A DNA stretch of 64,000 nt from Lachnospiraceae bacterium (lineage in GTDB: Bacteria; Bacillota; Clostridia; Lachnospirales; Lachnospiraceae): assembly GCA_024692955.1 (NCBI GenBank), contig JAILLW010000044.1, positions 7,027 to 71,026 of the forward strand, in the 5' to 3' direction. A model generated the notes under the pieces. The model was not told where the DNA came from. It worked only from the letters and a program-made list of their open reading frames with translations, and made no database searches. Positions 1 to 18,962 of the stretch are shown one piece after another. Numbering within the stretch: position 1 is the first letter of the stretch; every line of letters starts with the position of its first letter. The translations under genes were made by a program, and so were the position numbers.

Positions 1-371
1 GAGATCATATCTGCATTATATTTAGTGGCTATTCCTATAAGGTATTGATACATTTCGCGGTCTATCCAGTCATCTGCATCTATAAAACCAATGTATTCAC
101 CTTTTGCTATTACCGTACCTTCTCGTCGCGCTGAATATACACCACCATTCCGTTTATGGATTACGGTGACTCTTTTATCATTCATCGCATATTCGTCACA
201 GATTGATGGACTTCGATCCTCCGATCCATCATCCACCAAGATAACTTCGATGTTCTCATATGATTGATTAAGAATACTATCAACGCATGATGACAAGTAC
301 TTTTCACCATTAAACACCGGGACTATAATACTTATTAGCGGATTGATTAACTTGTTCACGACATTTCTCAT
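1..371 (-). CDS. Glycosyltransferase family 2, N-terminal part (gene continues beyond the left edge)
   Basis: Own reverse-strand translation from ATG at 371; it is absent from the ORF track because it runs off the edge. Reads MRNVVNKLINPLISIIVPVFNGEKYLSSCVDSILNQSYENIEVILVDDGSEDRS...GEYIGFIDADDW, which carries the GT2 signature (IIVPxxN, DDGS, DxD). Low-GC segment. Confidence 0.8.
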   Translation of the reverse strand, partial: MRNVVNKLINPLISIIVPVFNGEKYLSSCVDSILNQSYENIEVILVDDGSEDRSPSICDEYAMNDKRVTVIHKRNGGVYSARREGTVIAKGEYIGFIDADDWIDREMYQYLIGIATKYNADMI

Positions 372-383: not shown

Positions 384-1337
384 TTATCGTTTAGATAAGA
401 CCCTATGCTTTCGAATAAAACTGTCAACATCGTCCAAAAGATCATCATAATACTCTATGATCTTATCATCATCCCAATCCCACCATTTAATCTTCTTCAA
501 TTCTCTAATTTGATCCGGACTATATCTAAATCGAATGATTCTTGCCGGATTCCCTACCGCAACAGCATAATCGGGAATCGGCTTGGTAACAACAGTTCCT
601 GCACCGATAATTACTCCATCTCCAATATTTGAATAGTTTGTTATGATTGTGTTCCTTCCTATCCAAACATCATTACCGATGGTTATTCTTTTTCTCGGAG
701 CGATTCCTTTCGGTACAATCCCGTCCATATGGTATTTTGCTTCCGTATCTTCTTCCCACGGCCTAAATCCTTTCCAATTATTAGTATTCTGTGCCGCAAT
801 AGGATGTGTAGTAATATAAGTCAAAGCATGATTGCCGACTGCACAGGAACCAGCTGCAAATGAACAAAAAGCCCCCACTCGCTCTACATACTGATCATCA
901 CACAAAGGACCGTAACTGTATTTTCCGCATATCGTTTTAGGAACGGGAGAAATCCATTTCCTCTTGGTTTTTCGTTTCCACTCATCATATTCTTCCCTAA
1001 ACACATCGACAATTCCGTTTTCACTCACTAAAGATCTCGCATCTTTCATAAGTTCTTCATGGATGAGATAATTCTTACAAACAAGTAAGAGGCAAGTGGC
1101 GGAATTTTGTTTCCCTGTCTCCTTGACAAGGTCTTCTATTGCATAAACCTCACGATTGTATTTGCTTATCGTATTGTCAATTAAGACATAATCTGTAATC
1201 CCATATTGTTCCTCAATTATTCTTCTTGTAAGACATCCCATATCTCCATATGGAAATATCATAAACTTCTTCATTCCATCATCAATCTGTTTTCGAATAG
1301 CACATGAGATTCTCTGAAATTCCGTCTGATAGCCCAT
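384..1337 (-). CDS. Hexapeptide-repeat (left-handed beta-helix, Vat/CatB/xenobiotic-type) O-acetyltransferase with an unassigned N-terminal domain
   Basis: 317-aa ORF. The C-terminal half reads ITIGNDVWIGRNTIITNYSNIGDGVIIGAGTVVTKPIPDYAVAVGNPARIIRFRY, typical of LbH_XAT acetyltransferases. Low GC. Confidence 0.75.
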   Translation of the reverse strand: MGYQTEFQRISCAIRKQIDDGMKKFMIFPYGDMGCLTRRIIEEQYGITDYVLIDNTISKYNREVYAIEDLVKETGKQNSATCLLLVCKNYLIHEELMKDARSLVSENGIVDVFREEYDEWKRKTKRKWISPVPKTICGKYSYGPLCDDQYVERVGAFCSFAAGSCAVGNHALTYITTHPIAAQNTNNWKGFRPWEEDTEAKYHMDGIVPKGIAPRKRITIGNDVWIGRNTIITNYSNIGDGVIIGAGTVVTKPIPDYAVAVGNPARIIRFRYSPDQIRELKKIKWWDWDDDKIIEYYDDLLDDVDSFIRKHRVLSKR

Positions 1338-1360
1338 CGTTGTTTTTACCCCGTTGTAAA

Positions 1361-2371
1361 TTAGAACCTACCTAAAATCTCCTCCGCCCACGGATCTAAC
1401 AAATCCGCTTCGGTCGTGATGTCATTAGCCGCCACGCATTCTTTGCAGGATGGGTGCATAAACCTTTTTCCCTCCAGTTGCATTTTAAGAAATGCTCTAT
1501 GCTTCTCTCCATTCCAAATGTCATAAAGCCGTTCTGTGGTAATGTCGCCATAGATAATATCATGAGGTGTATCGCAACACGCTGATGTAACTAAGCCATT
1601 TGCTGCAACTCTGACGCGGAAAAACGGTCTGTGACAGACCTTATGAATACAATAGGTTGCTACATTCTCGCGGCCGTTCATAACCGTATCTTTAATCCTC
1701 TCATCGATCTTGTCATAATCCACATCCCCATATAGTGGCAGGATGTGCTCTATAAAAATGCTGTCAGCCTTATCTCCAAACAATGATTCGAACTTTTCCT
1801 TGCCATTCTCGACCCCTTCAAGGGCAAGATCGGCAATTTTCATCCGTATACTGCACTTTCCTTTATGATCATAAAGATATTTCAGATTGCTGAGAAATCT
1901 TTCAAAATCGATTTTCACACCACATGTAGTATAGTATGTTTGAGCATCCAAGCCCTGTAATGAAATACGAATGATATCGATTCCCTCTGTTTCCATCAGC
2001 GCGTCGACCCGTTCTGGAGTCAAAAGCAATCCATTTGTGGTAAAAGTAATCCTGTCTACAACATCTTCGCTTTTTGCAAGCGATATCATTTTCGGCAATA
2101 GGGGATTACAAAGAGGTTCACCAAACATATATGTTTCCATTTGCTTCGGTTTTTCCGGAAACTGTTTCAGGTCATTTATCACCTTTTCAAATAATCCCAT
2201 CGACATATTTCCTTCCCAGACCCCATGATTGGGTTTCGAATGGGCGCAGTAGACGCATTTCGCATTGCATAAGGAAGAAACCTCAACTTTCACATTATAG
2301 GGAGTTTCAAGTGGCACCACATCCTTTAAATATGTTCTTTTTTCTTCTCGCCATTGCCTGTATTCCGCCAT
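1361..2371 (-). CDS. Radical SAM protein with Cys-rich SPASM/twitch-like C-terminal domain
   Basis: 336-aa ORF with a CX3CX2C motif (SSLCNAKCVYCAH). C-terminal Cys cluster: CHRPF...TSACCDTPHD...HPSCKECV. Its ATG lies 1 nt after the stop of the upstream PdxA-like gene. Confidence 0.8.
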   Translation of the reverse strand: MAEYRQWREEKRTYLKDVVPLETPYNVKVEVSSLCNAKCVYCAHSKPNHGVWEGNMSMGLFEKVINDLKQFPEKPKQMETYMFGEPLCNPLLPKMISLAKSEDVVDRITFTTNGLLLTPERVDALMETEGIDIIRISLQGLDAQTYYTTCGVKIDFERFLSNLKYLYDHKGKCSIRMKIADLALEGVENGKEKFESLFGDKADSIFIEHILPLYGDVDYDKIDERIKDTVMNGRENVATYCIHKVCHRPFFRVRVAANGLVTSACCDTPHDIIYGDITTERLYDIWNGEKHRAFLKMQLEGKRFMHPSCKECVAANDITTEADLLDPWAEEILGRF

Positions 2372-2372
2372 A

Positions 2373-3413
2373 TCAGATTCTCCATCTGTATTCCGCCATC
2401 TTTACGCCCGCGAAGATGGCATCAAGCATACTTTCCGCATTCGCTCTGCCTTCCCCGGCTTTCCCGAATGCCGTTCCGTGATCCACCGATGTTCTCACGA
2501 TGGGCAGCCCGATCGTGCAGTTGATCCCGCTGACAGCTTCGTACTTATCATGGATCAGATCATACTTGAATCCGCTTAACTTAAGGGGTATATGCCCCTG
2601 GTCATGATACATTGCCACCACGATATCGTATTGACCCGCCTGGCATTTTACGAATACCGTATCCGGAGATTCCGGCCCGGTGACATCAATTCCCTGTTTC
2701 TTCGCTTCTTCCACGGCAGGCCGGATCTCATTCTGTTCTTCCGTCCCGAAAAGACCGTTTTCCGAGCAGTGCGGATTTAAGCCTGCCACCGCGATACGCG
2801 GTTTCTCTATGCCCAGCTGTCTTACTCCTTCATCCGCCAGCTGAATGGTTTTGAGGATCCGTTCCTTTTTTACCCGGTCACAGGCCTCCCTTAAGGACAC
2901 ATGTGTTGACACATGGATTACCCGGATCGTTTTGCTCGCAAGCAGCATGGCGAAGTCCTTCGTTCCGGTGCATTCCGCCAGGATTTCGGTATGTCCGCTG
3001 TAATGATGACCGGCCATATTCAGGGATTCCTTGTTGATCGGCCCCGTTACGACGGCATTCACTTCTTTGTTCTTCGCAAGTTCGATTCCCCGGATGACAT
3101 ACTGATACGCCGCTTCGCCGCACAATACGCTGTTTTTCTTATACTCCCAGCCTCCCGGCTTCAGAAACCCCAGATTGATAAAGTCAATGGTACCGAACTC
3201 ACCTCTTGCTTCATCCGGCTTTCCGATTTCATTCAGTTCCATCGGAAGATTGCAGAATCTTAATGCATCCTTCAGTGCTTCCCGGTCCCCCACGACGATC
3301 GGTGTGCATTTCTGGTATACTCCCACCTGGCTCAGCGCCTTTACTATGACCTCGGCGCCGATCCCGGCGGGATCTCCCATTGTTATCGCCAGTTTCATCT
3401 TCATTCGGCTCAT
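2373..3413 (-). CDS. PdxA-family NAD-dependent 4-phospho-hydroxyacid dehydrogenase (4-hydroxythreonine-4-phosphate dehydrogenase-like)
   Basis: 346 aa. Family motifs present: MGDPAGIG, GHTEILAE, GLNPHCSENGLFG, AMYHDQGHIPLK, RTSVDHGTAFGKAG. The true start may be one of the internal Met codons at positions 4-6. Confidence 0.8.
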   Translation of the reverse strand: MSRMKMKLAITMGDPAGIGAEVIVKALSQVGVYQKCTPIVVGDREALKDALRFCNLPMELNEIGKPDEARGEFGTIDFINLGFLKPGGWEYKKNSVLCGEAAYQYVIRGIELAKNKEVNAVVTGPINKESLNMAGHHYSGHTEILAECTGTKDFAMLLASKTIRVIHVSTHVSLREACDRVKKERILKTIQLADEGVRQLGIEKPRIAVAGLNPHCSENGLFGTEEQNEIRPAVEEAKKQGIDVTGPESPDTVFVKCQAGQYDIVVAMYHDQGHIPLKLSGFKYDLIHDKYEAVSGINCTIGLPIVRTSVDHGTAFGKAGEGRANAESMLDAIFAGVKMAEYRWRI

Positions 3414-3839
3414 CTACCTTCCCAGTATTTTTTCTTTGATCTCGGTGGTTGAAATCCCTTTGGTGTACGGAACATAAACCACATCAACATTGATTTCTTT
3501 CAGGACCTCCTCAAAGCGGATCCATCGTTCCGTTCCTTTCCAGTCGTCCCCGATAAAAACCACATCAAAGTGATAAAGTTCCCACAATTTGATCTTGTCC
3601 CGAAACCTGTTGATCACGGCCCGGTCAACGCCCTTGATCGATTCCACGATCTTCTTACGGTCTTCCTCATTGATGATCGGGCGTCTGTGCTTGTATTCCT
3701 CGACCACATCGTCGCCGTGAACGCCCACGATCAGATATTCGCACCGCTTCTTTGCCTCGTTGATCATATTCAGGTGTCCGACATGAAAAAGATCATACAC
3801 ACCGTCAGTATATCCGACTTTATACTTCTTCTCCGTCAT
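3414..3839 (-). CDS. TagD/TarD-like cytidylyltransferase (glycerol-3-phosphate cytidylyltransferase family)
   Basis: 141 aa. HxGH motif (GVYDLFHVGHLNMI) and C-terminal YTKGISTTEIKEKI, resembling RTEGISTT of TagD. Abuts the PdxA-like start and overlaps LicD by 4 nt. Confidence 0.8.
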   Translation of the reverse strand: MTEKKYKVGYTDGVYDLFHVGHLNMINEAKKRCEYLIVGVHGDDVVEEYKHRRPIINEEDRKKIVESIKGVDRAVINRFRDKIKLWELYHFDVVFIGDDWKGTERWIRFEEVLKEINVDVVYVPYTKGISTTEIKEKILGR

Positions 3840-4663
3840 ATTTTCTCATCTCCCGGTAAAACCAGTTTTGAAACCGGATGGGTTTTTCGCTTCTCAACCG
3901 GTGGCAGTTCCATATAGTTCCCATACTTCACGGAAAGATATCCGTCATAGTCTTTCGCTCCCGGAAATCTCACTCCGGAAAAATCATATCGGCAAAGTTC
4001 CGTATACCATTTCCTCATATAACCGAAACAATGCTTCGGAGTCGGAAATGTCAGTATCCGGACAAGCCTGGTCTTTTTATGCCGCCCCCGCTGAATAAAA
4101 GCCTCGTATGCCTTCTTAACTCTATTCTCGGGAATATGAGACATTAATCTGTAGATCTGCCGGTAAACCGGATTCTCTTCTGTCTTTGCGCCCACTTTGG
4201 ACCAAAAGAGTTTCCTGAAAAGAAAACACTCCGCAAAATGCAATCTTCGTGAAATCCATCCGTCCGGAACATTATCAAAGGGCATCAGATCGATAAAGAC
4301 CCCCTGTTCATAGGGCATATACTCCTGATCCTGCCGGATAAAAGCCGTTCCCTTCCTCCGCAGTTTACCGTAGCCCCAGCGATAGCCTTTCGTGTCTCGA
4401 AAATCCTGCATATAAAAGCGATCATGGTCAAGTTCTGTCCGGCAGGCTTCCCGGAACTTCTCATACTCTTCCCGGAGAAACCCGATGTCCGCATCATCGT
4501 CCCAGGGGATCGGGCCCCGGTGCCGTATCGCGCCCAGCATCGTTCCACCGACCATGTTGTAGTGGATCCCGCACTTTCTGCAGATCCGGTCCACTTCCGA
4601 GATCAGTTCCAGCTCGACCGCCTGAAGTCTCTTTAGTTGCTCACCTTCAATCTTAACTGCCAA
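3836..4663 (-). CDS. LicD-family phosphotransferase (transfers phospho-alcohol from a CDP-activated donor to a glycan)
   Basis: 275 aa. Reads LQAVELELISEVDRICRKCGIHYNMVGGTMLGAIRHRGPIPWDDDADIG, the LicD nucleotidyltransferase-fold signature with a DxD. Confidence 0.8.
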   Translation of the reverse strand: MAVKIEGEQLKRLQAVELELISEVDRICRKCGIHYNMVGGTMLGAIRHRGPIPWDDDADIGFLREEYEKFREACRTELDHDRFYMQDFRDTKGYRWGYGKLRRKGTAFIRQDQEYMPYEQGVFIDLMPFDNVPDGWISRRLHFAECFLFRKLFWSKVGAKTEENPVYRQIYRLMSHIPENRVKKAYEAFIQRGRHKKTRLVRILTFPTPKHCFGYMRKWYTELCRYDFSGVRFPGAKDYDGYLSVKYGNYMELPPVEKRKTHPVSKLVLPGDEKI

Positions 4664-4689: not shown

Positions 4690-4971
4690 TTATCTTCCGG
4701 AATAAAACCCGTTATTACTGTCTGTCTTCCACATCTCATACATTTCCAGATAATGATCCTTGATGAATCTCTGGATCACTTTGATCTCGCGGTCATTAAG
4801 CACTCCTCTTTTCTGCACTATTGTGCTCCCATCACCCCTGACGAAGAATTTTGCCGCCCCGCTCTCTGTCAGATTCGCATCGCTTGCATGTACATGCATA
4901 CATTCCACTATGCAAAATGAAGTATAGTAAAGGTAATATCCGCAGACCTTATGTTCATAATACTTTGGCAT
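4690..4971 (-). CDS. Small protein, DUF4160-like
   Basis: 93 aa. The pattern GYYLYYTS...ECMHVHASD...AKFFV...G...REIKVIQRFIKDH resembles the DUF4160 layout (Y/F-rich strand, E-x-x-HVH). Assigned by recollection only. Confidence 0.45.
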   Translation of the reverse strand: MPKYYEHKVCGYYLYYTSFCIVECMHVHASDANLTESGAAKFFVRGDGSTIVQKRGVLNDREIKVIQRFIKDHYLEMYEMWKTDSNNGFYSGR

Positions 4972-5200
4972 CGGCGCCCTCCATATACTGCGAATCCTGC
5001 TCCCAGATCCTTTTTACGATCACCTGCTGGATATCATCCATGTTCGTTTCAAGCATTACCCCTTCCGGTGTCATCATCATGGCCGACTCGCCATCGTTTA
5101 TATTAAATACCCGTATGAAATCTCCGTCTCTCTTAAACGCATAACCGCGTATGATCATATCAGCATCATCCGCGATCCTTTTCACTTTTTCATTTTCCAT
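4955..5200 (-). CDS. Small hypothetical protein
   Basis: 81-aa ORF co-directional with and overlapping both neighbours (17 nt and 11 nt). I recognise no family. Confidence 0.45.
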   Translation of the reverse strand: MENEKVKRIADDADMIIRGYAFKRDGDFIRVFNINDGESAMMMTPEGVMLETNMDDIQQVIVKRIWEQDSQYMEGADAKVL

Positions 5201-5471
5201 TTTCGATTCTCACCCCCTTAATGCCACGTAATTGTCTCTCCGGCTCCATATACAGATTCTCCATCAGGTGCTGCAGGTCAATATAGTCCTCATATTCCCC
5301 TTTTGCTTTTCCCTCACAATCGACAACAATATATCCGTTATCCCATACTTTAACCCTTAAATATCTGACCAGATCCTTGCCGTGCATAAACACGATCCTC
5401 TTCCCGTTATCATACGAAAAGGTAGTATACTTTCCATCACAACGCAATGTGGCGTACGTTTCGTTTTCCAT
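5190..5471 (-). CDS. Small hypothetical protein
   Basis: 93-aa ORF, 32 nt downstream of the TagF-like gene. I recognise no family. Confidence 0.45.
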   Translation of the reverse strand: MENETYATLRCDGKYTTFSYDNGKRIVFMHGKDLVRYLRVKVWDNGYIVVDCEGKAKGEYEDYIDLQHLMENLYMEPERQLRGIKGVRIENGK

Positions 5472-5503: not shown

Positions 5504-8122
5504 CTATTTCCCGGTCAGTTCCCGATATACCTTCTCCCCGCAGTCGCCGTCCGGACTCGCATTCACCGGCCGGTAAGCCTCAAGCTGGCTTTCCTTATCA
5601 AACCCTCCAATATTCCCCGAAAGAATATCCGGAAGGGTATTGAATACGCCCTCATAGCAGCAATAGGGCAGCCATTGCGAGACCTTCTGAAAACCGGGGG
5701 CAAGGTTTCTGATCTCCTCCCGGTCAAAAGTCACCGGAACTTCGCTGCAGGTCCCTTCCGAAAGATCGAACCGGTAGGTCTTATGCTCTGGATGGTAACT
5801 AAAGAAGGCTTCAAGACTCCATATATCCTGATAAAAAGCACCGATGGAAGTGTTGGGCCAATAATCATTCACCGGGTTCAGTGAATAGGGAAACGGAGGG
5901 ATCCATTCCCGGGCTTCATGGGTCTTCGTGTCGAGTTCCACAAATTTATTTCCCCAGTTGGGCGCGAGGATCAGCTTCCCGTTCACGAAAATCCCGTTGC
6001 TGAAATAAAATGTATTGCTCTCAACGCCCTGCGGCCTCTGGATCGAACTGAGGCCCTCAATCCCGGCATCCACCTTCTCGAAGCGGTCTTCGGATAATGT
6101 CCATTTCCCGAGAACGGTGCCTTCATAGGGCAGGAACCAGATAACATTAAGGTTCTCGCGATCTCGCAGAACACCGATGTAAAGACCGTTTAGGGGAACT
6201 GCCCTCTCCTCGACCCTTCCGTTATCCAGACTGATCACCCGGAGTCTCGTTCCCTCCGTATTCAAACAGAATATCCTTTTCCCCATCATTTTGATGCCGG
6301 GGATCCGGATTGCCTTCTCCGGAGTATCGATCACTTGAGGTTCATCCGAACTCCGGTCGAACATCTTCGTTCCAGGTATCCATCGCGCCGCGATCACGCG
6401 CCGCTCCTGTTCGTTGACATAAACCGAATATTCATCCGTAAATGCCTCGTCCCGGACATAGGAAACCTTTTCCGTATTCGCATCAAACCGCACCAATGCA
6501 GGATATCTGTTGGGATAGATCCACCAAATATGCGGATCTTCCAAAAGCAGATTTGTGAATCCTCCAAATGCCCCGCTCCGGTCAACCTCATGCCTGAGTT
6601 CGATCCTTCTTTTTTCCAGCGTTTCGGGATCCAGGATCAGGATATGCTCCGCATTCTGCGGAAAGACCACGATCTTTCCCTCTGCTTCGATGGCACGGGA
6701 GTAATACCCGCCCCTTGAATACTCTTCGGAAAGATTGCAGAGGTATTTATAATGATGATCCCCTTCGCGGTCTTCAAAAAGCCGGTTCCCGGCCGTGATA
6801 CAGTAGCGGTTATTCCGGTCTCCTCGCAGCCACTGTGCCACATTCACCTTCCAGTCATCCTCTCCGGGCGCCTCTGTCAGCCGGTTATTCAGAATATAGA
6901 TCGGTTTCCCGGCGACACCGAAAAGTGAAATGACACTGGTTCCGGAATCTCCGAGATAGGCGTCGCAGAGGGCAATGGTGGATTCGATCTCCGGAGTTTC
7001 ATCGAGAATGCCGATCTTCTGTTCGAGAAACAGTCTTTTCAGCTCCTGATAGGCTGCCTTCGCTTCCGGCCGCATGGATTCAATCGTCGATTCAAGAAGC
7101 GGATGCGGGCGCCAGATGAGACAGACATCATCCCTGCCCCGGAAGGACTCAAACACATACGCCATTTTCTTCAGGAACTGAGGGGCGTTATGAAGGAAGC
7201 CTCCGAGACTGGTATTGTAGAAAAAGACTCTCTTCCCTCTGATCCGGTCTTCCCATTCCACAGGCGGAGCCGGAGGATTCTCACAAAGGCGGATCACCTT
7301 GTCAAACTTCGGGGATCCGAGAGGCATGAATTTTTCTTTCGGGATCTGAGGATCGAAGAATCCGATCATGCTCTCGGACTGTATTACAATATGATCCGAA
7401 TGAACATAGGCCGGGAGCAACTCGTGTCCGGCCGCCATATTGCCGGAGGTCGCAAAGTAGGGGATATATACAAGACAGTCCGTATACTTCTTAAGACGGC
7501 TCGAATAGTAATCCGGGTGCACACTCGTCACATGATTCCATTCATCATAGGGATTATGGATAAAGATCATTTCCGGATGACGCGCCGTGATGTCATAGGT
7601 CCGGTAATCCACCACCGGTACATTCTCCGGATACAGTTCCGCTTCATAATGCTCCGTCTTGAAGGTGCCGTCCGGATTCCTGTCATAATACGGGATCGGA
7701 ATGACATAGGCGTCACAATTTGGATCCGTGTCCGCGGCCATCCATACGGACTCAAGAGAATCCCACATAGCGGCCTTATAGGGAAGGAAAACAGCCTCGA
7801 TCCGCTCGGAAAGCTGACTGATCTCCCCCCTGCATCCGTTGATACAGGAGTCCAGTTTATAGGTGGCTCTTTCCTCGCCGGTGGAAAAGCGGTAAAGAAG
7901 CTCACAATAGTCTTCGAGATATCCGACCGCCTTTGTCCCCTCTCCCTCGGAACCTTCTATGGAATTGCCCACGCTGATGGCGGCGTCCTGACAGTCCTGA
8001 AGAAGTGTGGCAAGGGCTGCTTCTCCCTTTTTTCCGGAGGTCAGGCACTGTTTGATGCTCCGGTCCGCTTTCAAAAGTGTATTCAGAAGCCCCAGTATTT
8101 CATTTTTCAGATATCGTCTCAT
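5504..8122 (-). CDS. TagB/TagF-like CDP-glycerol (polyol-phosphate) glycerophosphotransferase with a ~450-aa C-terminal extension
   Basis: 872 aa. The central region VIPIPYYDRNPDG...IFIHNPYDEWNHVTS...LIWRPHPLL...LCDAYLGDSGTSVISLFGVAGKPIYILN matches the TagF-type GT-B catalytic pattern (RPHP His, D-x-S-S block). The N-terminal helical region and the C-terminal half are unassigned. Confidence 0.6.
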   Translation of the reverse strand: MRRYLKNEILGLLNTLLKADRSIKQCLTSGKKGEAALATLLQDCQDAAISVGNSIEGSEGEGTKAVGYLEDYCELLYRFSTGEERATYKLDSCINGCRGEISQLSERIEAVFLPYKAAMWDSLESVWMAADTDPNCDAYVIPIPYYDRNPDGTFKTEHYEAELYPENVPVVDYRTYDITARHPEMIFIHNPYDEWNHVTSVHPDYYSSRLKKYTDCLVYIPYFATSGNMAAGHELLPAYVHSDHIVIQSESMIGFFDPQIPKEKFMPLGSPKFDKVIRLCENPPAPPVEWEDRIRGKRVFFYNTSLGGFLHNAPQFLKKMAYVFESFRGRDDVCLIWRPHPLLESTIESMRPEAKAAYQELKRLFLEQKIGILDETPEIESTIALCDAYLGDSGTSVISLFGVAGKPIYILNNRLTEAPGEDDWKVNVAQWLRGDRNNRYCITAGNRLFEDREGDHHYKYLCNLSEEYSRGGYYSRAIEAEGKIVVFPQNAEHILILDPETLEKRRIELRHEVDRSGAFGGFTNLLLEDPHIWWIYPNRYPALVRFDANTEKVSYVRDEAFTDEYSVYVNEQERRVIAARWIPGTKMFDRSSDEPQVIDTPEKAIRIPGIKMMGKRIFCLNTEGTRLRVISLDNGRVEERAVPLNGLYIGVLRDRENLNVIWFLPYEGTVLGKWTLSEDRFEKVDAGIEGLSSIQRPQGVESNTFYFSNGIFVNGKLILAPNWGNKFVELDTKTHEAREWIPPFPYSLNPVNDYWPNTSIGAFYQDIWSLEAFFSYHPEHKTYRFDLSEGTCSEVPVTFDREEIRNLAPGFQKVSQWLPYCCYEGVFNTLPDILSGNIGGFDKESQLEAYRPVNASPDGDCGEKVYRELTGK

Positions 8123-8218
8123 AATGACCTTTACGAACCGGCGACCCTTTCTTCAGGATCCGTGAATGTCGCGGGATTGTCACCGGAATCTCCCGCAACA
8201 ACAAGATATTGTGCCACA

Positions 8219-8248
8219 ATTATAATAATACCATACATTTATGGTATT
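8219..8248 (-). promoter_or_regulatory. Candidate promoter (-10 TATAAT at 8219-8224) overlapped by a perfect 9-bp inverted repeat AATACCATA-N4-TATGGTATT (8227-8248)
   Basis: Read directly. It lies between the terminator at 8339-8368 and the TagF-like start at 8122. I see no convincing -35. Confidence 0.3.
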
Positions 8249-8338
8249 GGACAGAGCAAAAGCCGTCACATGGCCCACAATTATATATCGGCAGATCCGT
8301 CCGGAATGATTACCCGGCCATGTCTTTTTTCGGAGCTC

Positions 8339-8368
8339 AAAAAAGCCCCGGAGAAACACTCTCCGGGG
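8339..8368 (-). terminator. Rho-independent terminator after the GDPD gene
   Basis: Minus-strand RNA reads CCCCGGAG-AGUGUUU-CUCCGGGG followed by CUUUUUUG. It starts 30 nt after the stop at 8398. Confidence 0.75.
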
Positions 8369-8397
8369 TAAATGGTTTTGGGTAAGCTGTTTTTTGA

Positions 8398-9126
8398 TCA
8401 AAGATACATCTCGGGCTCGTTCAGAAAGACATCCGTAATGCCCTTTTCTTCAAGAGCCGCAAGGTCCAGCTTTCCTCCGGTCGGCTTTTCCGGGTATAAA
8501 TGCCCGGTAAGCCATGCCCGGACCGGATATCCTTTAAACTTATCGGGCTCAAAGTCCATGCCCTGCCAGAATGGATGAAGCGCATCCGCGCCGATGCTTT
8601 TTGCCTTATAAAGGCAGTCGGACACTTTTTTATCGAGCATCCCGGTCCCCGCATCGGGTACAAGTTCCTTAATCCTTACTATCGACGCGGCATAAAAACT
8701 CGAATAGACAACCGACTTTTCAAGTCCGTATTCCGATATCAGTTTTACGATCTTCTCCTCCATCCCGGGATAGGGAAAAATACTGTTCTTAAGTTCAATA
8801 TTGAGCAGAAATCCCTTTTTCATCGCATCCGCAAGGAGATCCAGGACCTCTTTCATGGTCGGGATGCGTTCCGCTTCCCTTTTTCCGGTATGGATATGGA
8901 AAGATTTAAGTTCTTCGAGTGTATAATCTCTCACAAATCCGTATCCGTCGGTGGTCCGGTCGATCTTTTCATCATGAATGACGACCAGCTCTTTGTCCTT
9001 CGTCAGCTGAATATCAAGTTCGATCCCCGTAAGGCCCCTTCCAAAAAGCTCCAACGCTTTGGAGAAGGAAGTGATCGTGTTTTCCGGATACCTCTGTGAG
9101 CACCCCCGGTGCGCCCAGATCTTCAT
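8398..9126 (-). CDS. Glycerophosphodiester phosphodiesterase (GDPD/GlpQ/UgpQ family)
   Basis: 242 aa. Reads MKIWAHRGCSQRYPENT...GIELDIQLTKDKELVVIHDEKIDRTTDG, covering the HRG, ENT, E-x-D and HD catalytic motifs. Confidence 0.85.
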   Translation of the reverse strand: MKIWAHRGCSQRYPENTITSFSKALELFGRGLTGIELDIQLTKDKELVVIHDEKIDRTTDGYGFVRDYTLEELKSFHIHTGKREAERIPTMKEVLDLLADAMKKGFLLNIELKNSIFPYPGMEEKIVKLISEYGLEKSVVYSSFYAASIVRIKELVPDAGTGMLDKKVSDCLYKAKSIGADALHPFWQGMDFEPDKFKGYPVRAWLTGHLYPEKPTGGKLDLAALEEKGITDVFLNEPEMYL

Positions 9127-10205
9127 GCTCTTCCACCTGCCTTCAAATGTTTCTCCATAAGATCCGCCATACAGATCGAACGGTCCTTTGCCGCCTTCCG
9201 GTCTTCCTCATCCGGTCCGTCTGTGGCTTCTTCGCAAATCCCCTCGATCTGTCTTTGGAATTCCCCGATCTCGTACCGGAGTCCGTCCCCCTCGAAGGGG
9301 ATGTCGAAGCTCTGCATCTTCGACGGATCCTCGAAGTGGATCTCAAAATGTCTCGTCTTCCACCAGGGGGCGTCCGCCTTAATGAACCCCTTCGTTCCGC
9401 TTATAAGAAGCCGGCCCTCCGCCTTTACGCCGAGTCCGCAGACTGCGGAAGCCATCCTTCCGGGATAATCAAGATCCAGTTTCGTAAAGGTATCGATCCC
9501 GAGCCCGTTCCGGATCGACGAGAAGCGGACGGATTCATATCCGCTTCCGAAAAGATCAAGGATCGGGAGCAGCACATAGCTTCCGAGTTCCGTAAAACTG
9601 CCTCCGTATCCTCTGTCCGTAAGTTCCCGTCTGTCGGGACTTTCCAGCTTTGTAAAGCAGCTTTCGACGAATTTCACCTCACCGATGATCCCGTCCGATA
9701 CCGTCTGAAGCAGTTCCCGGTATCCGGGGCAATAGGCCGTTTTCAGCCCCTCCATCAGTATGAGACCCTTTTCTTCCGCAAACTGAAAGCATTCCGCCGC
9801 CTCTTTCGAAGAAAGGGTCATGGGCTTTTCGCAAAGGACATGCTTTCCCTGCCGAAGAGCCTTAAGGATATATTCATAATGTGTTTCATGGGGTGTCGCG
9901 ATATAGACAGCATCCGTGACGTTCCAGAAATCCTCCGGAATGCACGAAGTCCCCGGATCGACTCCGGATTCCCGGGAGCCTTCTTTCGCCGCGAATGCAT
10001 ATGCTTTCGGGACTGTGGCTTTATTATCCGCTATTCCTTCCGGGAGTTTTCCCGCCGCGGTGTCTCCCCATACCTCCCGCACGAACCGCTCCGCGCTTCC
10101 CGGGTGGGGATTATAGACCGCGGTGATCTCCGCTCCAGGAACGCACATTGCCTCCGGGACAAACCGCTTTGCGATCCTTCCTGTTCCGATGATCCCGATC
10201 TTCAT
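9123..10205 (-). CDS. Gfo/Idh/MocA-family NAD(P) oxidoreductase
   Basis: 360 aa. Motifs KIGIIGTGRIAKRF (Rossmann) and HVLCEKPM. Clear paralogue of the C-terminal part of the upstream fusion protein, with a ~50-aa insert. The two genes overlap by 4 nt. Confidence 0.8.
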   Translation of the reverse strand: MKIGIIGTGRIAKRFVPEAMCVPGAEITAVYNPHPGSAERFVREVWGDTAAGKLPEGIADNKATVPKAYAFAAKEGSRESGVDPGTSCIPEDFWNVTDAVYIATPHETHYEYILKALRQGKHVLCEKPMTLSSKEAAECFQFAEEKGLILMEGLKTAYCPGYRELLQTVSDGIIGEVKFVESCFTKLESPDRRELTDRGYGGSFTELGSYVLLPILDLFGSGYESVRFSSIRNGLGIDTFTKLDLDYPGRMASAVCGLGVKAEGRLLISGTKGFIKADAPWWKTRHFEIHFEDPSKMQSFDIPFEGDGLRYEIGEFQRQIEGICEEATDGPDEEDRKAAKDRSICMADLMEKHLKAGGRA

Positions 10206-11560
10206 GCAAGCGCCGCCTGATATGCCTTTCGTTTTTCCATGAATTTCTCCACCACATCCGCCATTGCGATGGATTCCCCGGCCGTCAGCTTGTAATCATT
10301 TCCGCCGGTCCCGTTTACCTTGGATATGAATTCCGCGATCTCGTACCGGAGACCGTCGTCTCCGAGAAAGCTGGATTCAAAATGATCGATCTTTCCCGGA
10401 TCCTCGTAGCGGACATCGAAGCCTCTCGTAAGCCACCAGGGGGATTTCACGAGGATATATCCCTTCGTCCCCGCGATGATCAGCTCACCTTCCGATTTTA
10501 CGCCCGCTCCCGCTTTCGCGGTGGCAAGTGCGTTCTTATAACGGAACTGAACTTTCGTAAAGGTGTCGATCCCCTTTTTCCCGTATACCGACTCGATGCG
10601 GACGTCCTCATAATCTTTTCCGAGCAGTTTGAAGATCGGGAGCATCCCGTAGCTTCCGTACTCCAGAAAAGCCCCGCTGTACTTTTCGTCCGTCATCTCT
10701 CTCGTGCCCGGAAGGCCGATCCTCGTAAACGTCGCCTCGATATCGCAGATCTCGCCGATGATCCCGCTCCTTGCCACGGAAAGCAGCTGAAGGAATCCGG
10801 GAAGATACGCCGTACGGATCCCCTCCATCAGTGTGACCCTGTTTTCTTTGGCAAGGTCATAGAGTTCCGCCGCTTCGTTATAGGTAAATGTCATCGGCTT
10901 TTCACAGAGCACGTGCTTTCCGGACAGAACGGACTTTCGGACATATTCGCTGTGGGTCTCATTCGGCGACGCCACATAGACGGCATCCACTTCTTCCAGA
11001 AAACTCTCGAAATGATCTGTCCAGGTCTTGATCTGATACTTCTCCTCAAAGGACCGTGCGCTCTCCTCCTCCGGGTTATAGGCATTTACTACCTCAATGC
11101 CGGATACAAAACTGGTCTCCTTCAGAAAACGCGGAGCGATACGCCCCGTACCGATGATGCCGATCCGGACGATCTTCTGCCGCTCATCCCGAAGCAGGCT
11201 CGAAGAGATCCCCGCCGTTCTCGGAAGATATATCACCTCACAGTATTTTTTCAGATAATCATAGCGTCCGGCCCAGTCGCTTCCCAGAGTAAAGACATCG
11301 ATTCCGTAGCGCTGGATGTCCTCCACCTTCTGCCCTTCATGATCCTCCACGATGATCTCATCGGCGAAGCCGGTATTCCAGACATTTTCCATCCGGACCC
11401 GGATCGGATCGACCAGGTTCAGTTTTCCGCGCATCAGATCATAGTGCTCGGTCGTAACCCCGACGATCAGATGATCGCCGAGCTCCTTTGCCCGTTTTAA
11501 AAGCTGGTAATGTCCCTCATGGAAAAGATCGAAGGATCCATACGTGATCACTTTTTTCAT
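10202..11560 (-). CDS. Fusion protein: TagD-like cytidylyltransferase (aa 1-130) plus Gfo/Idh/MocA oxidoreductase (aa ~131-452)
   Basis: N-terminus: YGSFDLFHEGHYQLLKRAKELGDHLIVGV...PRTAGISSSLLR. Then: VRIGIIGTGRIAPRF...HVLCEKPM. Confidence 0.8.
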   Translation of the reverse strand: MKKVITYGSFDLFHEGHYQLLKRAKELGDHLIVGVTTEHYDLMRGKLNLVDPIRVRMENVWNTGFADEIIVEDHEGQKVEDIQRYGIDVFTLGSDWAGRYDYLKKYCEVIYLPRTAGISSSLLRDERQKIVRIGIIGTGRIAPRFLKETSFVSGIEVVNAYNPEEESARSFEEKYQIKTWTDHFESFLEEVDAVYVASPNETHSEYVRKSVLSGKHVLCEKPMTFTYNEAAELYDLAKENRVTLMEGIRTAYLPGFLQLLSVARSGIIGEICDIEATFTRIGLPGTREMTDEKYSGAFLEYGSYGMLPIFKLLGKDYEDVRIESVYGKKGIDTFTKVQFRYKNALATAKAGAGVKSEGELIIAGTKGYILVKSPWWLTRGFDVRYEDPGKIDHFESSFLGDDGLRYEIAEFISKVNGTGGNDYKLTAGESIAMADVVEKFMEKRKAYQAALA

Positions 11561-11566: not shown

Positions 11567-11941
11567 TCAGATCTCCTTCACCCACAGCCCGTGCAGATTG
11601 CAGTATTCATAGGCCGCTACGGCAGCATCGCCGTCAGCAAGGACAAAGACCGCCTCGGGCTTCTCGCCGGGCTTTAAATATTTCGTCTGATAACCCTGCT
11701 TCGTTTCCAGTATGATCCACTGGATGTAATGCGCATCCAGCATGGGATGTTCCACATCCCCGACCTTTACGGACACTTTGTTTCCGTCGATGCTTACGGA
11801 CGGGATGTGCTTTTCATACGCGCCGTCCGAAGTCCCCGGAACGAGCTCCGTCATCGCTTTTCCGCAGCAGAACGCCGGTACGCCCGAATCGTTCAGCTTC
11901 GTAATGATGTTACCGCATGTTTCGCATTTGTAGAATTTCAT
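11567..11941 (-). CDS. dfx: Desulfoferrodoxin (class I superoxide reductase)
   Basis: 124 aa. N-terminal desulforedoxin-like Cys motif (KCETCGN...FCCGKAM). SOR centre II residues present (EKHIP, VEHPM, YCNLHGLW). Confidence 0.85.
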   Translation of the reverse strand: MKFYKCETCGNIITKLNDSGVPAFCCGKAMTELVPGTSDGAYEKHIPSVSIDGNKVSVKVGDVEHPMLDAHYIQWIILETKQGYQTKYLKPGEKPEAVFVLADGDAAVAAYEYCNLHGLWVKEI

Positions 11942-16480: not shown

Positions 16481-16613
16481 CCCTAACTAACTAGGCTCAT
16501 TTTGCCCCATGCGTCGGTCGGACCGCATAAAAGCGGGATCAGAAACGATCAGGCCGGCCGCGGAAACGGATTTTCCGCGGAATGCATGTATCAAGGAAGA
16601 AAGGAGGGGCTCT

Positions 16614-17927
16614 ATGGCAGCATATAATTCTAAAGTAGACACGATCTACAATCATTATCTGACATCGTATGCACCGAAGGGTGCGGTATCCAAGTACGAT
16701 TCTCACAAAAAAGACGAGCTTCGGGGCGTATATCGCTCTATGCTTAAACTGAACAAAGACGCGCCCCTCTATATCCTGGATTCCAGTAAAGAATCCAGGA
16801 GCTTCGTGGTTAATCTGAAAGAAAACGCGCGGAGTCTGAGGAATACCATCGCCGAACTCGGCGGTGTCGATGATGACCGCATGTTCAGCAAGAAATCGGC
16901 CTATTCCACCGATGAGAATATGGTCTCCGCTTCCTTCATCGGAGAGATCGAAGACGGAGACAGCGCTCCCACCTATGATCTGGAAGTAAGAAAACTCGCT
17001 TCCAATCAGGAGAATCTGGGACACGCCTTAAGATCCGACGACAAAGCGGCCCTTCAGCCGGGCACCTATTCCTTTGATATCGGGATCAATGATGTCAGTT
17101 ACGAATTCCAGTTCAACATCCGTGAAGATGATACGAACCGGGATATTCAGGAGCGGCTGGCACGTCTGGTATCCAAGGCGGATATCGGGATCCATGCCGA
17201 TGTGCTCGACGGCGAGAACGGACGGTCCGCTCTCCGCTTATCCTCCGCGGAATCCGGTCTGAAAAAGGGCGGCGAACTGATCTTCACCATATCCGAGGAT
17301 CGTTCCTCGATGGCTTCCGGTACCGTGGAGTATCTCGGTCTCAATTATGTATCGAAAACGCCTTCCAACGCGGAATTCCTCCTGAACGGAGAAGAGCGCA
17401 GCGCGTCCTCGAACCACTTTACCATCGACAGTACCTATGAAGTGACCCTGAACAATCCGGCCCCGGCCGGTGGCAGAAGCGCCAGGATCGGTGTCAAGAC
17501 GGATCTCGATTCCATTACGGAAAACGTGGGGAATCTGCTCGGAAAATACAATCAGTTCATCCGTGCCGCCGCGGAATACCGCGAAGCACATCCGATGAGC
17601 ACGAAGCTCATGAACGATATGGACCGGATGGTCTCCTATTATTCCGAGAACTTCAAAAATCTCGGTATCAGCGCCGAAAAGGACGGTACCTTAAGTCTGG
17701 ATGAGCGGGGATTCAAATCCGCACTGGCCGGTGATGAGGATTTCTCCTCCTTGAAATCGGTCAAGGGCTTTGCTTCCTCCATCCTTAACAAATCCAATCA
17801 GATCTCTTTGAACCCCATGGAATATGTGGACAAAAAGATCGCTGCTTATAAAAACCCCGGGCACAATTTCGTGGCCCCTTACGCGAGCAGCACCTACGCC
17901 GGTATGTTCTTTAACGGCTACGGCTAG
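16614..17927 (+). CDS. Divergent FliD-like protein (putative flagellar filament cap / HAP2); only plus-strand gene
   Basis: The ATG at 16614 is preceded by AAAGGAGG. The central region reads TYDLEVRKLASNQENLG...YSFDIGINDVSYEFQFNIREDDTNRDIQERLARLVSKADIGIHADVLDGENGRSALRLSSAESG. This follows the FliD pattern (V-x-x-LA, single-sample series, DTL-x-D-I-x-x-IN, GV-x-A, L-x-L-t-S). The termini are atypical. Confidence 0.45.
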   Translation: MAAYNSKVDTIYNHYLTSYAPKGAVSKYDSHKKDELRGVYRSMLKLNKDAPLYILDSSKESRSFVVNLKENARSLRNTIAELGGVDDDRMFSKKSAYSTDENMVSASFIGEIEDGDSAPTYDLEVRKLASNQENLGHALRSDDKAALQPGTYSFDIGINDVSYEFQFNIREDDTNRDIQERLARLVSKADIGIHADVLDGENGRSALRLSSAESGLKKGGELIFTISEDRSSMASGTVEYLGLNYVSKTPSNAEFLLNGEERSASSNHFTIDSTYEVTLNNPAPAGGRSARIGVKTDLDSITENVGNLLGKYNQFIRAAAEYREAHPMSTKLMNDMDRMVSYYSENFKNLGISAEKDGTLSLDERGFKSALAGDEDFSSLKSVKGFASSILNKSNQISLNPMEYVDKKIAAYKNPGHNFVAPYASSTYAGMFFNGYG

Positions 17928-18261
17928 GATCCGCCTGATACTTTTCGAGCATCGCGTAATCATCCATCAGTTCAAGGATCTTCCTTCGCCCGTCTTTGTT
18001 AAGGCGGGCGAAGCTGCTTATCAGTTTTCTTTCATAAAGCTTCCGATTCGCTCCGGAAAGCTCCTCGATCCCCGAAAAATCCGCCGGCGAGAGATTCAGT
18101 CTCTCGCACATCCGAAGGACCGTTCCGTAGGCCATCCCCTCGATCCCGCGGTCGAGTGCGGTCACAAGCGTACTGTAGGGAATGCCCGTTTCGTTGCAGA
18201 AAGCCCGTATGCTTTTGTACTGCTCAAGGATCGCGTCCTTTAAGATCTCGGATTTCGTCAT
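17911..18261 (-). CDS. XRE-family helix-turn-helix transcriptional regulator
   Basis: 116 aa. Reads SIRAFCNETGIPYSTLVTALDRGIEGMAYGTVLRMCERLNLSPADF, an HTH_XRE pattern. It starts 22 nt after csrA, and its 3' end overlaps the convergent FliD-like gene by 17 nt. Confidence 0.65.
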   Translation of the reverse strand: MTKSEILKDAILEQYKSIRAFCNETGIPYSTLVTALDRGIEGMAYGTVLRMCERLNLSPADFSGIEELSGANRKLYERKLISSFARLNKDGRRKILELMDDYAMLEKYQADPSRSR

Positions 18262-18283
18262 TTTCAGTCCCCGGTCTCCGTTC

Positions 18284-18505
18284 CTACTTCAGAAGATCCT
18301 TCAGTGCTTCCATACCCTGCGTATCCGCATTGGCTGCCTGGTTCGCTTCCTGGATCTGAACATATACCTCTTTACGGTATACGGGTACCTCCTTGGGTGC
18401 CGTGATGCCGAGCTTTACCTGCTCGCCCTTGATCTCCAGAACGGTGACTTCGATATTGTTGTTGAGTATCAGTGCTTCATTCTTTTTTCTCGATAATGCC
18501 AGCAT
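18284..18505 (-). CDS. csrA: Carbon storage regulator CsrA
   Basis: Reads MLALSRKKNEALILNNNIEVTVLEIKGEQVKLGITAPKEVPVYRKEVY, the canonical CsrA sequence. I chose the start at the MLxLSRK Met; the ORF track begins 4 codons earlier. Confidence 0.9.
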   Translation of the reverse strand: MLALSRKKNEALILNNNIEVTVLEIKGEQVKLGITAPKEVPVYRKEVYVQIQEANQAANADTQGMEALKDLLK

Positions 18506-18506
18506 G

Positions 18507-18962
18507 TTACTCACCACCCTTCTTCGCTTTCAGGATCTCATAGATCGGGAACCTTACCTGAAGGCTGTTATCTTCGATGATCACCTGGGCGGCCTTTTTG
18601 GTCAGCGCATTGATGATAATGGGACCTCTTAAGTTTACGGTCATTTTGGTCAGATCGGACGGTACCGTTACCGTTACCATGACCAGTGTCTCTTCCGGAT
18701 TCAATTCGCCGAGAGGCTTTAAGATCTCATCATCCACCTCGGGATTGTAGTCTTCCTTCACGGTCAGAGGATCCATAACCGGCATCGCAAACGCCGGCTC
18801 CTGCATGGACTGCAGCCAGTGAATGCCTCCGACGCCCTTGTCCGCGTCATGGAGGAGGGCAAAATCCGTCAGATCCGGGAATCCGATGATACCGGACGGG
18901 AATTTGATGATCTTGTCATCCTCAATCGTAATTTCTCCGAAATTTTTCGTTGTAACAGTCAT
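18507..18962 (-). CDS. fliW: Flagellar assembly factor FliW
   Basis: Reads MTVTTKNFGEITIEDDKIIKFPSGIIGFPDLTDFALL...WLQS...FAMPVMDP...NLRGPIIIN. The ATG at 18962 is preceded by AAGGAGAG. The upstream ORF extension is unlikely to be translated. Confidence 0.85.
   Translation of the reverse strand: MTVTTKNFGEITIEDDKIIKFPSGIIGFPDLTDFALLHDADKGVGGIHWLQSMQEPAFAMPVMDPLTVKEDYNPEVDDEILKPLGELNPEETLVMVTVTVPSDLTKMTVNLRGPIIINALTKKAAQVIIEDNSLQVRFPIYEILKAKKGGE

Follow-up and report, generated by a model that had tools for sequence, protein, structure and literature searches.

We analysed a 64,000-nucleotide stretch of contig JAILLW010000044.1 from a Lachnospiraceae bacterium (assembly GCA_024692955.1, positions 7,027 to 71,026; hereafter the window), in which three adjacent minus-strand genes encode a LicD-family phosphotransferase, a small cytidylyltransferase-like enzyme (CT*) and a PdxA-like dehydrogenase. 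We put at roughly 0.65 the probability that this LicD-CT*-PdxA triad is a self-contained, horizontally exchanged Kennedy-type cassette, which would place a phosphodiester-linked small head group on a cell-surface glycan. The cassette is real, conserved and abundant, and fits a dedicated, undescribed phospho-head-group pathway. The initial annotation of this DNA had described five co-directional genes, the triad followed by a radical SAM (rSAM) gene and an LbH (hexapeptide) acetyltransferase gene, as one tightly coupled module separated by -4 to +23 nt. The family labels are upheld by Pfam and NCBIfam scores (Table 1) and the spacing is confirmed as -4, 0, +1 and +23 nt on the minus strand, but only LicD-CT*-PdxA emerges as a conserved unit; the rSAM gene, which is also found in other contexts, and the LbH gene, which is not conserved, lie beyond a break in base composition and are not part of it.

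The triad as the conserved unit

Loci were gathered via homologues of the rSAM, of PdxA and of an 872-residue protein whose gene adjoins the cassette in nearly all of them, and were annotated by BLAST clustering and Pfam. LicD, CT* and PdxA recur in the same order and with the same tight spacing in at least 14 distinct Lachnospiraceae loci across genera (the window, L004-7, L015, L016 from a Dorea metagenome-assembled genome (MAG), L017 from an Acetatifactor MAG, L020, L023 from Dorea sp. 5-2, L031-34, L037, L114 from bovine rumen, L116, L117-119 and L120-122). On one further 4.7-kb contig (L036), which holds no LicD, CT* is followed by an Acyl_transf_3 gene, PdxA and an ATPgrasp_ST protein. 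The triad proteins are 65-84% identical across loci, compared with 40-60% for the flanking core genes; LicD orthologues in the same position share 65-72% and CT* orthologues 75-84% identity with those of the window. The triad is also abundant: a cluster at 90% identity appears in 551 blocks of the assembly collection and two further clusters appear in 148 and 114 blocks, all three belonging to the variant of L031-34 and L117-119 described below.

Read on the coding strand, the LicD stop and the CT* start overlap at ATGA (-4 nt), the CT* stop codon TAG abuts the PdxA-like ATG (0 nt; the NCBI annotation places this start three codons later than position 3413), and a single nucleotide separates the PdxA-like TGA from the rSAM ATG. 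The rSAM-LbH spacer measures 23 nt, and a glycosyltransferase (GT2) gene that starts 12 nt past LbH runs off the window start, so that the operon extends beyond it. The GC content at third codon positions (GC3) is 0.55-0.61 in the triad (0.61 in PdxA) and 0.57-0.68 in the neighbouring genes, and drops past PdxA to 0.43 in rSAM, 0.33 in LbH and 0.34 in GT2. The break sits exactly at the 1-nt PdxA/rSAM junction, and the rSAM gene is compositionally foreign in the window.

Table 1. Genes of the cassette, its downstream neighbours and the adjoining core, in window coordinates.
Feature	Coordinates	Strand	Size and profile matches
GT2 glycosyltransferase, 5' part	1..371	-	PF00535 120 bits over the 123 aa available
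LbH (hexapeptide) acetyltransferase	384..1337	-	317 aa; Hexapep 29.7 bits
BtrN-like twitch radical SAM (rSAM)	1361..2371	-	336 aa; Radical_SAM 64 bits + SPASM 36 bits
PdxA2-like NAD(P)- and metal-dependent dehydrogenase	2373..3413	-	346 aa; PF04166 358 bits
CT*, small cytidylyltransferase-like enzyme	3414..3839	-	141 aa; PF01467 (CTP_transf_like) 77 bits
LicD-family phosphotransferase	3836..4663	-	275 aa, TTG start; PF04991 111 bits
872-aa core protein	5504..8122	-	no Pfam or NCBIfam match
GDPD, cytoplasmic glycerophosphodiester phosphodiesterase	8398..9126	-	PF03009 118 bits
GFO/IDH/MocA oxidoreductase	9123..10205	-	PF01408 + PF22725
TagD-like cytidylyltransferase-GFO/IDH/MocA fusion (CT-GFO)	10202..11560	-	PF01467 + PF01408

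What follows PdxA differs from locus to locus. In L004, L015-17, L020, L023 and L114 it is a BtrN-like rSAM like that of the window, often accompanied by a TupA-like ATP-grasp protein. In L031-34 and L117-119, the most abundant triad variant, this rSAM is missing and an unrelated rSAM of 385-400 residues, a class-I aminotransferase and a methyltransferase-like protein take the position. Because the triad is directly followed by a GT4 gene in L120-122 and by oppositely oriented genes in L037, it can also stand alone. Conversely, the BtrN-like rSAM stands right after PdxA-less cassettes in L001-3, L011, L014, L018, L019 and L024, with Butyrivibrio, Pseudobutyrivibrio, Selenomonadales and other Lachnospiraceae as hosts of this arrangement; such cassettes comprise CT*, sometimes an AsnB/PseA-like gene (fused to CT* in L024), a Glyphos_transf (TagF-like) gene and sometimes a TylF methyltransferase gene. 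In L010 and L026 several genes separate the rSAM from a Glyphos_transf gene upstream of it. Overall, among the 17 close rSAM loci from a genome scan (L010-L026, at least 53% identity), the rSAM directly follows a CT*/phosphotransferase cassette in 9, and a further 3 have such a cassette within a few genes.

The quartet of PdxA, TagD-like, LicD and rSAM genes, for which a survey of neighbourhood conservation had been suggested, therefore does not hold together as a unit, since the BtrN-like rSAM occurs without PdxA and the triad without this rSAM. The variable presence of rSAM and LbH, the GC3 break behind PdxA and the higher conservation of the triad relative to its flanks mark the triad as the unit; the quartet is one arrangement among several, and all five genes come together in the window alone. 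The rSAM is most simply a facultative tailoring enzyme tied to CT* cassettes of either type. The slot itself accommodates further cassettes: in L115, whose core is the most similar to that of the window (CT-GFO 80%, large core protein 60% identity), it holds LicD (52% identity), IspD and a short-chain dehydrogenase/reductase (SDR), a classical CDP-ribitol-type cassette. The core lies in a hypervariable glycan island in which cassettes are swapped between strains.

Family assignment of the cassette and tailoring enzymes

Judged by sequence comparison, the PdxA homologue belongs with the PdxA2 / D-threonate-4-phosphate dehydrogenases: enzymes of this type in the PDB (4jqp, 2hi1 and 6e85) match it at 50% identity with 296-306 bits, E. 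coli PdxA with 171 bits. The window protein, like the window rSAM, is identical to a MAG protein in GenBank, which places the window in a Lachnospiraceae MAG, and it is annotated there as PdxA. It passes TIGR00557 pdxA (343 bits, cut-off 290), but it falls short of NF002992 (375 bits, cut-off 470) and likewise of the other four PdxA equivalogs; against the PdxA2 equivalog NF002891 it reaches 336.6 bits, where the cut-off is 583. The motifs GHTE, HVSTH, NPH, YHDQGH and RTSVDHG, which hold the metal-binding His and the catalytic Asp, Lys and Arg residues, are invariant in triad- and kinase-linked homologues alike, and the few specificity-type differences that set the triad PdxAs apart from their kinase-linked relatives are W89, N94, S160, C257 and Y291. 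An 11-residue insert after 'LKLSGF', considered as a mark of a new PdxA subfamily, is not diagnostic, as it also occurs in kinase-linked clostridial PdxAs.

In a neighbour-joining tree all LicD/CT-linked PdxAs form one clade, sister to PdxAs linked to DUF1537 kinases (the nearest at 65% identity) and nested inside the kinase-linked family; by this placement, the triad PdxAs appear to derive from DUF1537-kinase-linked PdxA2 enzymes. The kinase adjoins PdxA in relatives at 65% identity or less, and none adjoins the gene in the triad loci. In agreement with the initial annotation, which had reported neither pdxJ nor a DUF1537-type kinase here, tblastn with two DUF1537 kinases gave no match in the window, and PdxJ was absent both from those open reading frames (ORFs) of the 64-kb window that were scanned and from the genes called in the related loci. 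Nor did tblastn reveal a second PdxA in the window.

LicD matches PF04991 over profile positions 1-227 of 227 (111.4 bits, cut-off 22.6) and its translation holds the string 'PWDDDADIGF', an acidic DDDAD stretch of the DxD type that we take to bind metal, as in the LicD/FKRP nucleotidyltransferase-like fold. It is predicted from its family to move a phospho-head group from a CDP donor onto a glycan. The label TagD-like, given to CT* at first, is apt as far as the CTP_transf_like family goes, but CT* is no TagD equivalog (84.9 bits against TIGR01518, cut-off 165.4) and matches rfaE domain II equally well (86 bits). It is 36% identical to B. subtilis TagD and 47-53% identical to the CT* of TagF-type cassettes. 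Its HxGH motif is present as HVGH, the second signature reads YTKGISTT instead of RTxGISTT, with the Arg replaced, and about 7-10 residues inserted ahead of this signature are shared with ethanolamine-phosphate cytidylyltransferase (ECT) and the cytidylyltransferase domain of Fom1.

Two other assignments were considered and dropped. An ECT-like CT* was suggested by human ECT being its top PDB match, but the E-value of that match sums two tandem domains, and per domain TagD scores 67 bits compared with 53 for human ECT. A phosphonate head group was prompted by the likeness of CT* to Fom1 and by the best NCBIfam match of LbH, a phosphonate-operon acetyltransferase; this was abandoned because no phosphoenolpyruvate mutase is seen in the window or in any related locus.

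The rSAM carries the cluster motif CX3CX2C as C35-x3-C39-x2-C42; in a 23-sequence alignment C35 and C39 are invariant and C42 is nearly so. Only five conserved cysteines lie in its C-terminal part, among which C246, C265/266, C309 and C312 are invariant and align, in a hidden Markov model alignment, with the four cysteines that bind BtrN's single auxiliary cluster. The SPASM label of the initial annotation therefore stands as a profile match (36 bits) but not as a description of the protein, which is twitch-like rather than a two-cluster SPASM maturase, since it has too few cysteines and aligns with the BtrN auxiliary cluster. BtrN is also its best PDB sequence match (E 4e-17, about 20% identity) and ranks first in a Foldseek search with its AlphaFold model (4m7t, E 2.5e-14, TM 0.73 on target; pLDDT 79.5), followed by DesII. 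Together, sequence and model point to a twitch-type enzyme of the carbohydrate-modifying kind.

Radical SAM genes occur in other configurations as well. Desulfocucumis palustris (L027, 7705-12017) and Anaerobacterium chartisolvens (L028, 7849-11995) each carry four tandem BtrN-like rSAM paralogues, 31-39% identical to the window protein. In L115 (15607-21388), L031 (8070-11508) and L117 (10110-13600) a 380-400-residue rSAM with an N-terminal extension is grouped with a class-I aminotransferase and a 340-residue methyltransferase-like protein; this set trails either a PdxA cassette or a CDP-ribitol-type cassette and looks like an independent tailoring module. A reading of the aminotransferase and PdxA as a SerC/PdxA-like pair was rejected, as the same set follows the CDP-ribitol-type cassette of L115.

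The C-terminal half of LbH resembles Vat/CatB/phn-type acetyltransferases, with all matches below cut-off, and follows an alpha/beta extension some 140 residues long. Its matches in related loci are confined to 46-58 residues (37-45% identity) of Hexapep genes upstream of LicD in L031-L034 and to 173 residues (28% identity) of a distant Hexapep gene, also upstream of LicD, in L116; no counterpart stands beside the rSAM in the other loci.

Proposed route, head group and competing explanations

In the route we propose, the PdxA2-derived dehydrogenase would perform an NAD(P)-linked redox step at the carbinol or keto carbon beside a CH2-O-phosphate, yielding an alcohol phosphate not available from central metabolism. 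From their families, CT* would be expected to join this alcohol phosphate with CTP into a CDP-activated donor, and LicD to pass the phospho-alcohol to a sugar acceptor. The cassette would plug into a core made up of a TagF-like protein, the TagD-GFO fusion, the GFO protein and GDPD. Because other strains carry CT* with a TagF-like protein or LicD-IspD-SDR in the same slot, PdxA would take the part that the reductase plays in the latter; the BtrN-like rSAM and LbH would be interchangeable tailoring genes, not obligatory steps. While we infer each of these chemical steps, the conservation of the triad, the monophyly of its PdxAs, their intact active site, the missing kinase and the exchange of cassettes are observations.

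For the head group, sn-glycerol-1-phosphate made by reduction of dihydroxyacetone phosphate (DHAP) is a candidate that we advance tentatively. By Cahn-Ingold-Prelog and Fischer analysis, the carbinol beside CH2OP in all known substrates of the PdxA family (4-hydroxythreonine-4-phosphate, D-threonate-4-phosphate and D-erythronate-4-phosphate) has the configuration of sn-glycerol-1-phosphate, and DHAP is a central metabolite. This option would also explain why the PdxA-less sister cassette, with its approximately 50% identical CT* and its TagF-like protein, has no need of a dehydrogenase. An amino- or keto-C3 phosphate, formed by canonical oxidative decarboxylation of a 4-phospho-hydroxy acid, is a somewhat more doubtful candidate: the conserved active site and the LbH and ATP-grasp genes that recur nearby are in keeping with it, but no source of the substrate is encoded, and threonate- or erythronate-4-phosphate would yield only DHAP. 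Oxidised CDP-glycerol or bound glycerol phosphate (GroP) is an unlikely head group.

Several points weigh against the route as a whole or against its glycerol-1-phosphate form. The activity and substrate of every member of the cassette are predictions, and the adjacency of genes in mosaic islands is no proof of a common sub-pathway. CT* enzymes from cassettes with PdxA and from those without it share about 50% identity, and both might make CDP-glycerol. The triad PdxAs retain essentially all residues conserved in their kinase-linked relatives; since these residues are shared, their conservation, which counts against the sn-glycerol-1-phosphate option, argues for a substrate that would still resemble the 4-phospho-tetronates, no source of which is encoded. 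Finally, ATP-grasp ligases and LbH genes recur near the cassette and hint at an amine or a carboxylate, which the glycerol-1-phosphate idea leaves unexplained.

These points bear on three other explanations. The initial annotation had envisaged one continuous pathway, in which PdxA supplies an unusual phosphorylated C3 unit that is possibly modified by the rSAM and then CMP-activated and attached to the wall polymer. Taken as a rival, all four or five genes would form this pathway, with PdxA oxidatively decarboxylating a 4-phospho-hydroxy acid to a C3 keto- or amino-phosphate, the cytidylyltransferase activating the product and LicD attaching it. Such canonical chemistry is plausible given the fully conserved active-site residues of PdxA, nearby LbH and ATP-grasp genes would suit N-acylation of an amine-bearing product, and Fom3, which acts on CMP-activated hydroxyethylphosphonate, provides a precedent for an rSAM working on a cytidylylated small molecule. 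The quartet does occur in at least 8 distinct loci (rSAM 55-86% identity), with just 1 nt from PdxA to rSAM in the window. Nonetheless, we consider this continuous pathway unlikely, as the rSAM is found without PdxA after CT*/TagF-like cassettes, the commonest triad variants lack the BtrN-like rSAM, GC3 breaks at the very junction in question and LbH is not conserved; moreover, a 4-phospho-hydroxy acid has no source within the conserved unit, be it a kinase, an aminotransferase or another enzyme, and the product from threonate- or erythronate-4-phosphate would be ordinary DHAP.

If CT* were instead a divergent TagD making CDP-glycerol, with LicD transferring GroP, PdxA might oxidise C2 of CDP-glycerol or of bound GroP, leaving a ketone handle for tailoring by rSAM, aminotransferase, ATP-grasp or acetyltransferase enzymes. 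The diversity of tailoring genes after the triad agrees with this, as do the core GDPD and TagD-like fusion, which point to glycerophosphodiester chemistry, and the pairing of CT* in PdxA-less cassettes, about 50% identical to that of the window, with Glyphos_transf proteins, whose known donors are CDP-glycerol. Against it, known substrates of the PdxA family are phosphomonoesters and the phosphate-binding motifs are unchanged, the triad may stand without any tailoring gene behind it, and the rSAM-aminotransferase-methyltransferase set also follows a CDP-ribitol-type cassette and so is not tied to PdxA; we regard this explanation as improbable, slightly more so than the continuous pathway. That PdxA has no glycan role at all, being a housekeeping vitamin B6 enzyme or a PdxA2 of four-carbon acid-sugar catabolism that lies near glycan genes by chance, is very improbable. 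Its GenBank name, its passing of the TIGR00557 cut-off (343 vs 290 bits) and the DUF1537 kinases adjoining its closest non-triad relatives would suit such a bystander, but the overlapping and abutting codons that join it to LicD and CT* in at least 14 distinct loci across genera, the single clade formed by the triad PdxAs, the fact that PdxA travels with the cassette and not with the flanks, the lack of kinase and pdxJ in the window and the failed cut-offs of the PdxA2 and other PdxA equivalogs all speak for a cassette enzyme. The exchangeable Kennedy-type cassette is therefore the reading that we retain.

The logic of the cassette is already known from CDP-ribitol, glycerol and choline pathways; what differs is that a PdxA-family enzyme and a small cytidylyltransferase other than TagD occur together with LicD. 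CDP-ribitol and other CDP-alditol pathways (TarJ with TarI, H. influenzae Bcs1, mammalian ISPD with FKTN/FKRP) follow the same three-part scheme of redox enzyme, cytidylyltransferase and LicD-family phosphotransferase, but their redox enzyme is a medium-chain or short-chain dehydrogenase/reductase (MDR/SDR) where the window has the isocitrate-dehydrogenase-like, metal-dependent PdxA family, and their cytidylyltransferase is IspD where the window has a small HxGH enzyme of the TagD/ECT fold. In the TagD/TagF wall teichoic acid pathway, too, a small HxGH cytidylyltransferase feeds a CDP-alcohol phosphotransferase, and the same islands contain TagF-like proteins, in the form of Glyphos_transf and of the 872-residue protein with its GT-B domain; CT*, however, is 27-36% identical to TagD and below the equivalog cut-off, LicD replaces TagF, and there is an extra dehydrogenase. 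With acid-sugar catabolism by PdxA2 and the DUF1537 kinase the window PdxA has in common the catalytic motifs, the 11-residue insert and 65% identity to kinase-linked clostridial homologues, but it has no kinase partner, lies within a glycan cassette and belongs to a separate monophyletic branch. The rSAM shares with BtrN (2-deoxy-scyllo-inosamine dehydrogenase) the four auxiliary-cluster cysteines, and both BtrN and DesII are rSAMs that act on small carbohydrates; it differs from BtrN in its approximately 20% identity, its 90 extra residues and its setting in a surface-glycan island instead of an aminoglycoside cluster.

The type A flagellin glycan of C. difficile and the b-type flagellin glycan of P. 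aeruginosa contain sugar-phosphate-N-methylthreonine, and the route proposed for them leads from phosphothreonine through CDP-threonine (CD0242) to a TagF-like transferase (CD0244) (PMC10714395, PMC11833859). The likeness lies in a Kennedy-like route to a phosphodiester-linked small head group, there on a protein-linked sugar, and in the Maf, nonulosonic-acid, TPR-GT2 and methyltransferase genes of related loci and the flagellar genes near the cassette in the window. Those systems differ in using a GlmU/LicC-like nucleotidyltransferase and a TagF-like transferase, where the window has a TagD-fold cytidylyltransferase and LicD, and in having no counterpart of PdxA; the window cassette in turn has no HAD phosphotransferase, and flagellin linkage is here only a candidate. 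The initial annotation knew of no described pathway with this combination, and our literature search gave no paper in the library searched that mentions PdxA together with LicD, and nothing relevant on rSAMs with CDP-glycerol, PdxA in flagellin glycosylation or Lachnospiraceae flagellin glycans.

Core genes, surroundings and the glycan acceptor

The cassette consistently stands behind the core, whose 872-residue protein belongs to a family of 840-900-residue proteins with more than 3,500 homologues, all named 'hypothetical'. Its AlphaFold model (pLDDT 89.7) predicts a helical bundle, a GT-B (TagF-like) domain and a beta-propeller, with fold matches to TagF (3l7m), UDP-GlcNAc 2-epimerases and propellers. 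A PDB sequence search gave no match, and the TagF-like GT-B domain is detected only by fold comparison and by profile-profile comparison, in which hhalign aligns the protein with Glyphos_transf proteins at 79% probability (E 1.6e-5). Orthologues of the CT-GFO fusion (53-80% identity) are present in all loci with long enough flanks, GDPD is conserved beside the fusion in related loci, and the second GFO protein is often, but not always, in their core. The cytidylyltransferase domain of the fusion is 44% identical to TagD, and by analogy with Bcs1 the fusion might produce a second CDP-alcohol, distinct from that of CT*. A strong, bidirectional terminator-like hairpin (8345-8369; a 10 bp stem with 7 GC pairs, then a T-run) lies in the 276-nt gap between the GDPD and 872-residue protein genes and may split the core into two transcripts; apart from it, a scan for promoters and terminators returned counts as in shuffled sequence.

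Between the 872-residue protein gene and LicD lie three small minus-strand ORFs (DUF7724, DUF7723 and DUF4160; 4690-5471; GC 0.42-0.44), at or near whose position other loci carry AAA-ATPase/PD-(D/E)XK or TnpB genes. With small low-GC ORFs here and such genes elsewhere, this spot next to the cassette slot looks like a hot spot of recombination or insertion. A minus-strand desulfoferrodoxin (superoxide reductase) gene at 11567-11941 stands between those for UDP-galactopyranose mutase and CT-GFO, so that a non-glycan gene is embedded in the island. Plus-strand ORFs antisense to real genes (e.g. 7103-8371, 9096-10220 and 10382-11500; up to 422 aa) are composition artefacts and should not be annotated.

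Two acceptors are conceivable, an O-glycan on flagellin and a wall polysaccharide. Some 5-13 kb from the core, at 16509-24764, lie flgK and flgL (two FlgK-domain proteins), a 558-residue flagellin gene, in whose product only the N-terminal Pfam domain is detected, and fliD on the opposite strand. Genes for Maf/MptE-like proteins, NeuB, CMP-nonulosonate synthetase and FkbM/TylF methyltransferases are found downstream in many related loci, and TPR-GT2 genes upstream of the core in L020 and L115; the stretch of the island that the window covers shows no Maf, nonulosonic-acid or TPR-GT2 genes. In the genome scan the rSAM family is found, among other taxa, in Butyrivibrio, Pseudobutyrivibrio, Selenomonas, Treponema and Brachyspira, all five of which we take to be flagellated genera. 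Against a flagellin acceptor, a BLAST search of the 8-10 kb flanks of the other loci gave no flagellar gene, the core is adjoined in L114 by an ABC-transporter ATPase gene, a NusG paralogue is present in L115, and the window holds a separate Wzm/Wzt-LCP-priming-transferase wall-polysaccharide locus at 29-49 kb.

As to the make-up of these neighbouring regions, the late flagellar genes sit between the glycan island and the Wzm/Wzt locus, a DUF6033 gene adjoins fliD, and an Rfam Clostridiales-1 RNA (19012-19139, minus strand; 92 bits, gathering score 48) lies immediately downstream of the flagellin gene (19139-20815). The region of the ABC-transporter-dependent polysaccharide locus (29335-51617, minus strand) comprises an LCP ligase, a Bac_transf priming enzyme, several GT2s, a methyltransferase-containing protein of 702 residues, Wzt (Wzt_C) and Wzm. 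It is followed by a GH25 muramidase with choline-binding-type repeats, of which the phospho-head group might, as speculation, be a ligand. A glmS ribozyme (34498-34649, minus strand; 71 bits) lies upstream not of glmS but of a Glucosamine_iso (NagB-like) gene (33676-34467), after which come genes for an LbH protein, a phosphoglucosamine-mutase-like protein, an LCP ligase and a GT2, and last a GlmS-like gene (27494-29320).

If the cassette works as proposed, PdxA would join the head-group pathways known for choline, glycerol, ribitol, arabinitol and threonine as a new family among their enzymes, probably with a new CDP donor, and hundreds of 'PdxA' annotations in gut Lachnospiraceae would be explained as unrelated to vitamin B6. 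Hypervariable islands of this kind set strain-level antigenicity and recognition by phages and antibodies, and possibly flagellin immunogenicity. Cultured strains are available for each cassette type (Dorea sp. 5-2 for the PdxA type; Butyrivibrio hungatei DSM 14810, Pseudobutyrivibrio ruminis AD2017 and Selenomonas ruminantium HD4 for the TagF type), which makes the question directly testable. A bolder possibility, which we hold to be rather doubtful, is that a PdxA2 branch was recruited from acid-sugar catabolism to glycan biosynthesis, where it would make a head-group precursor that bacteria otherwise lack (sn-glycerol-1-phosphate and hence an enantiomeric CDP-glycerol, or an amino- or keto-C3 phosphate), to be displayed through CT* and LicD on the flagellin or wall glycan of gut Lachnospiraceae. 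Were this so, it would add a new CDP-activated donor and a new surface epitope to bacteria whose flagellins are major immune targets.

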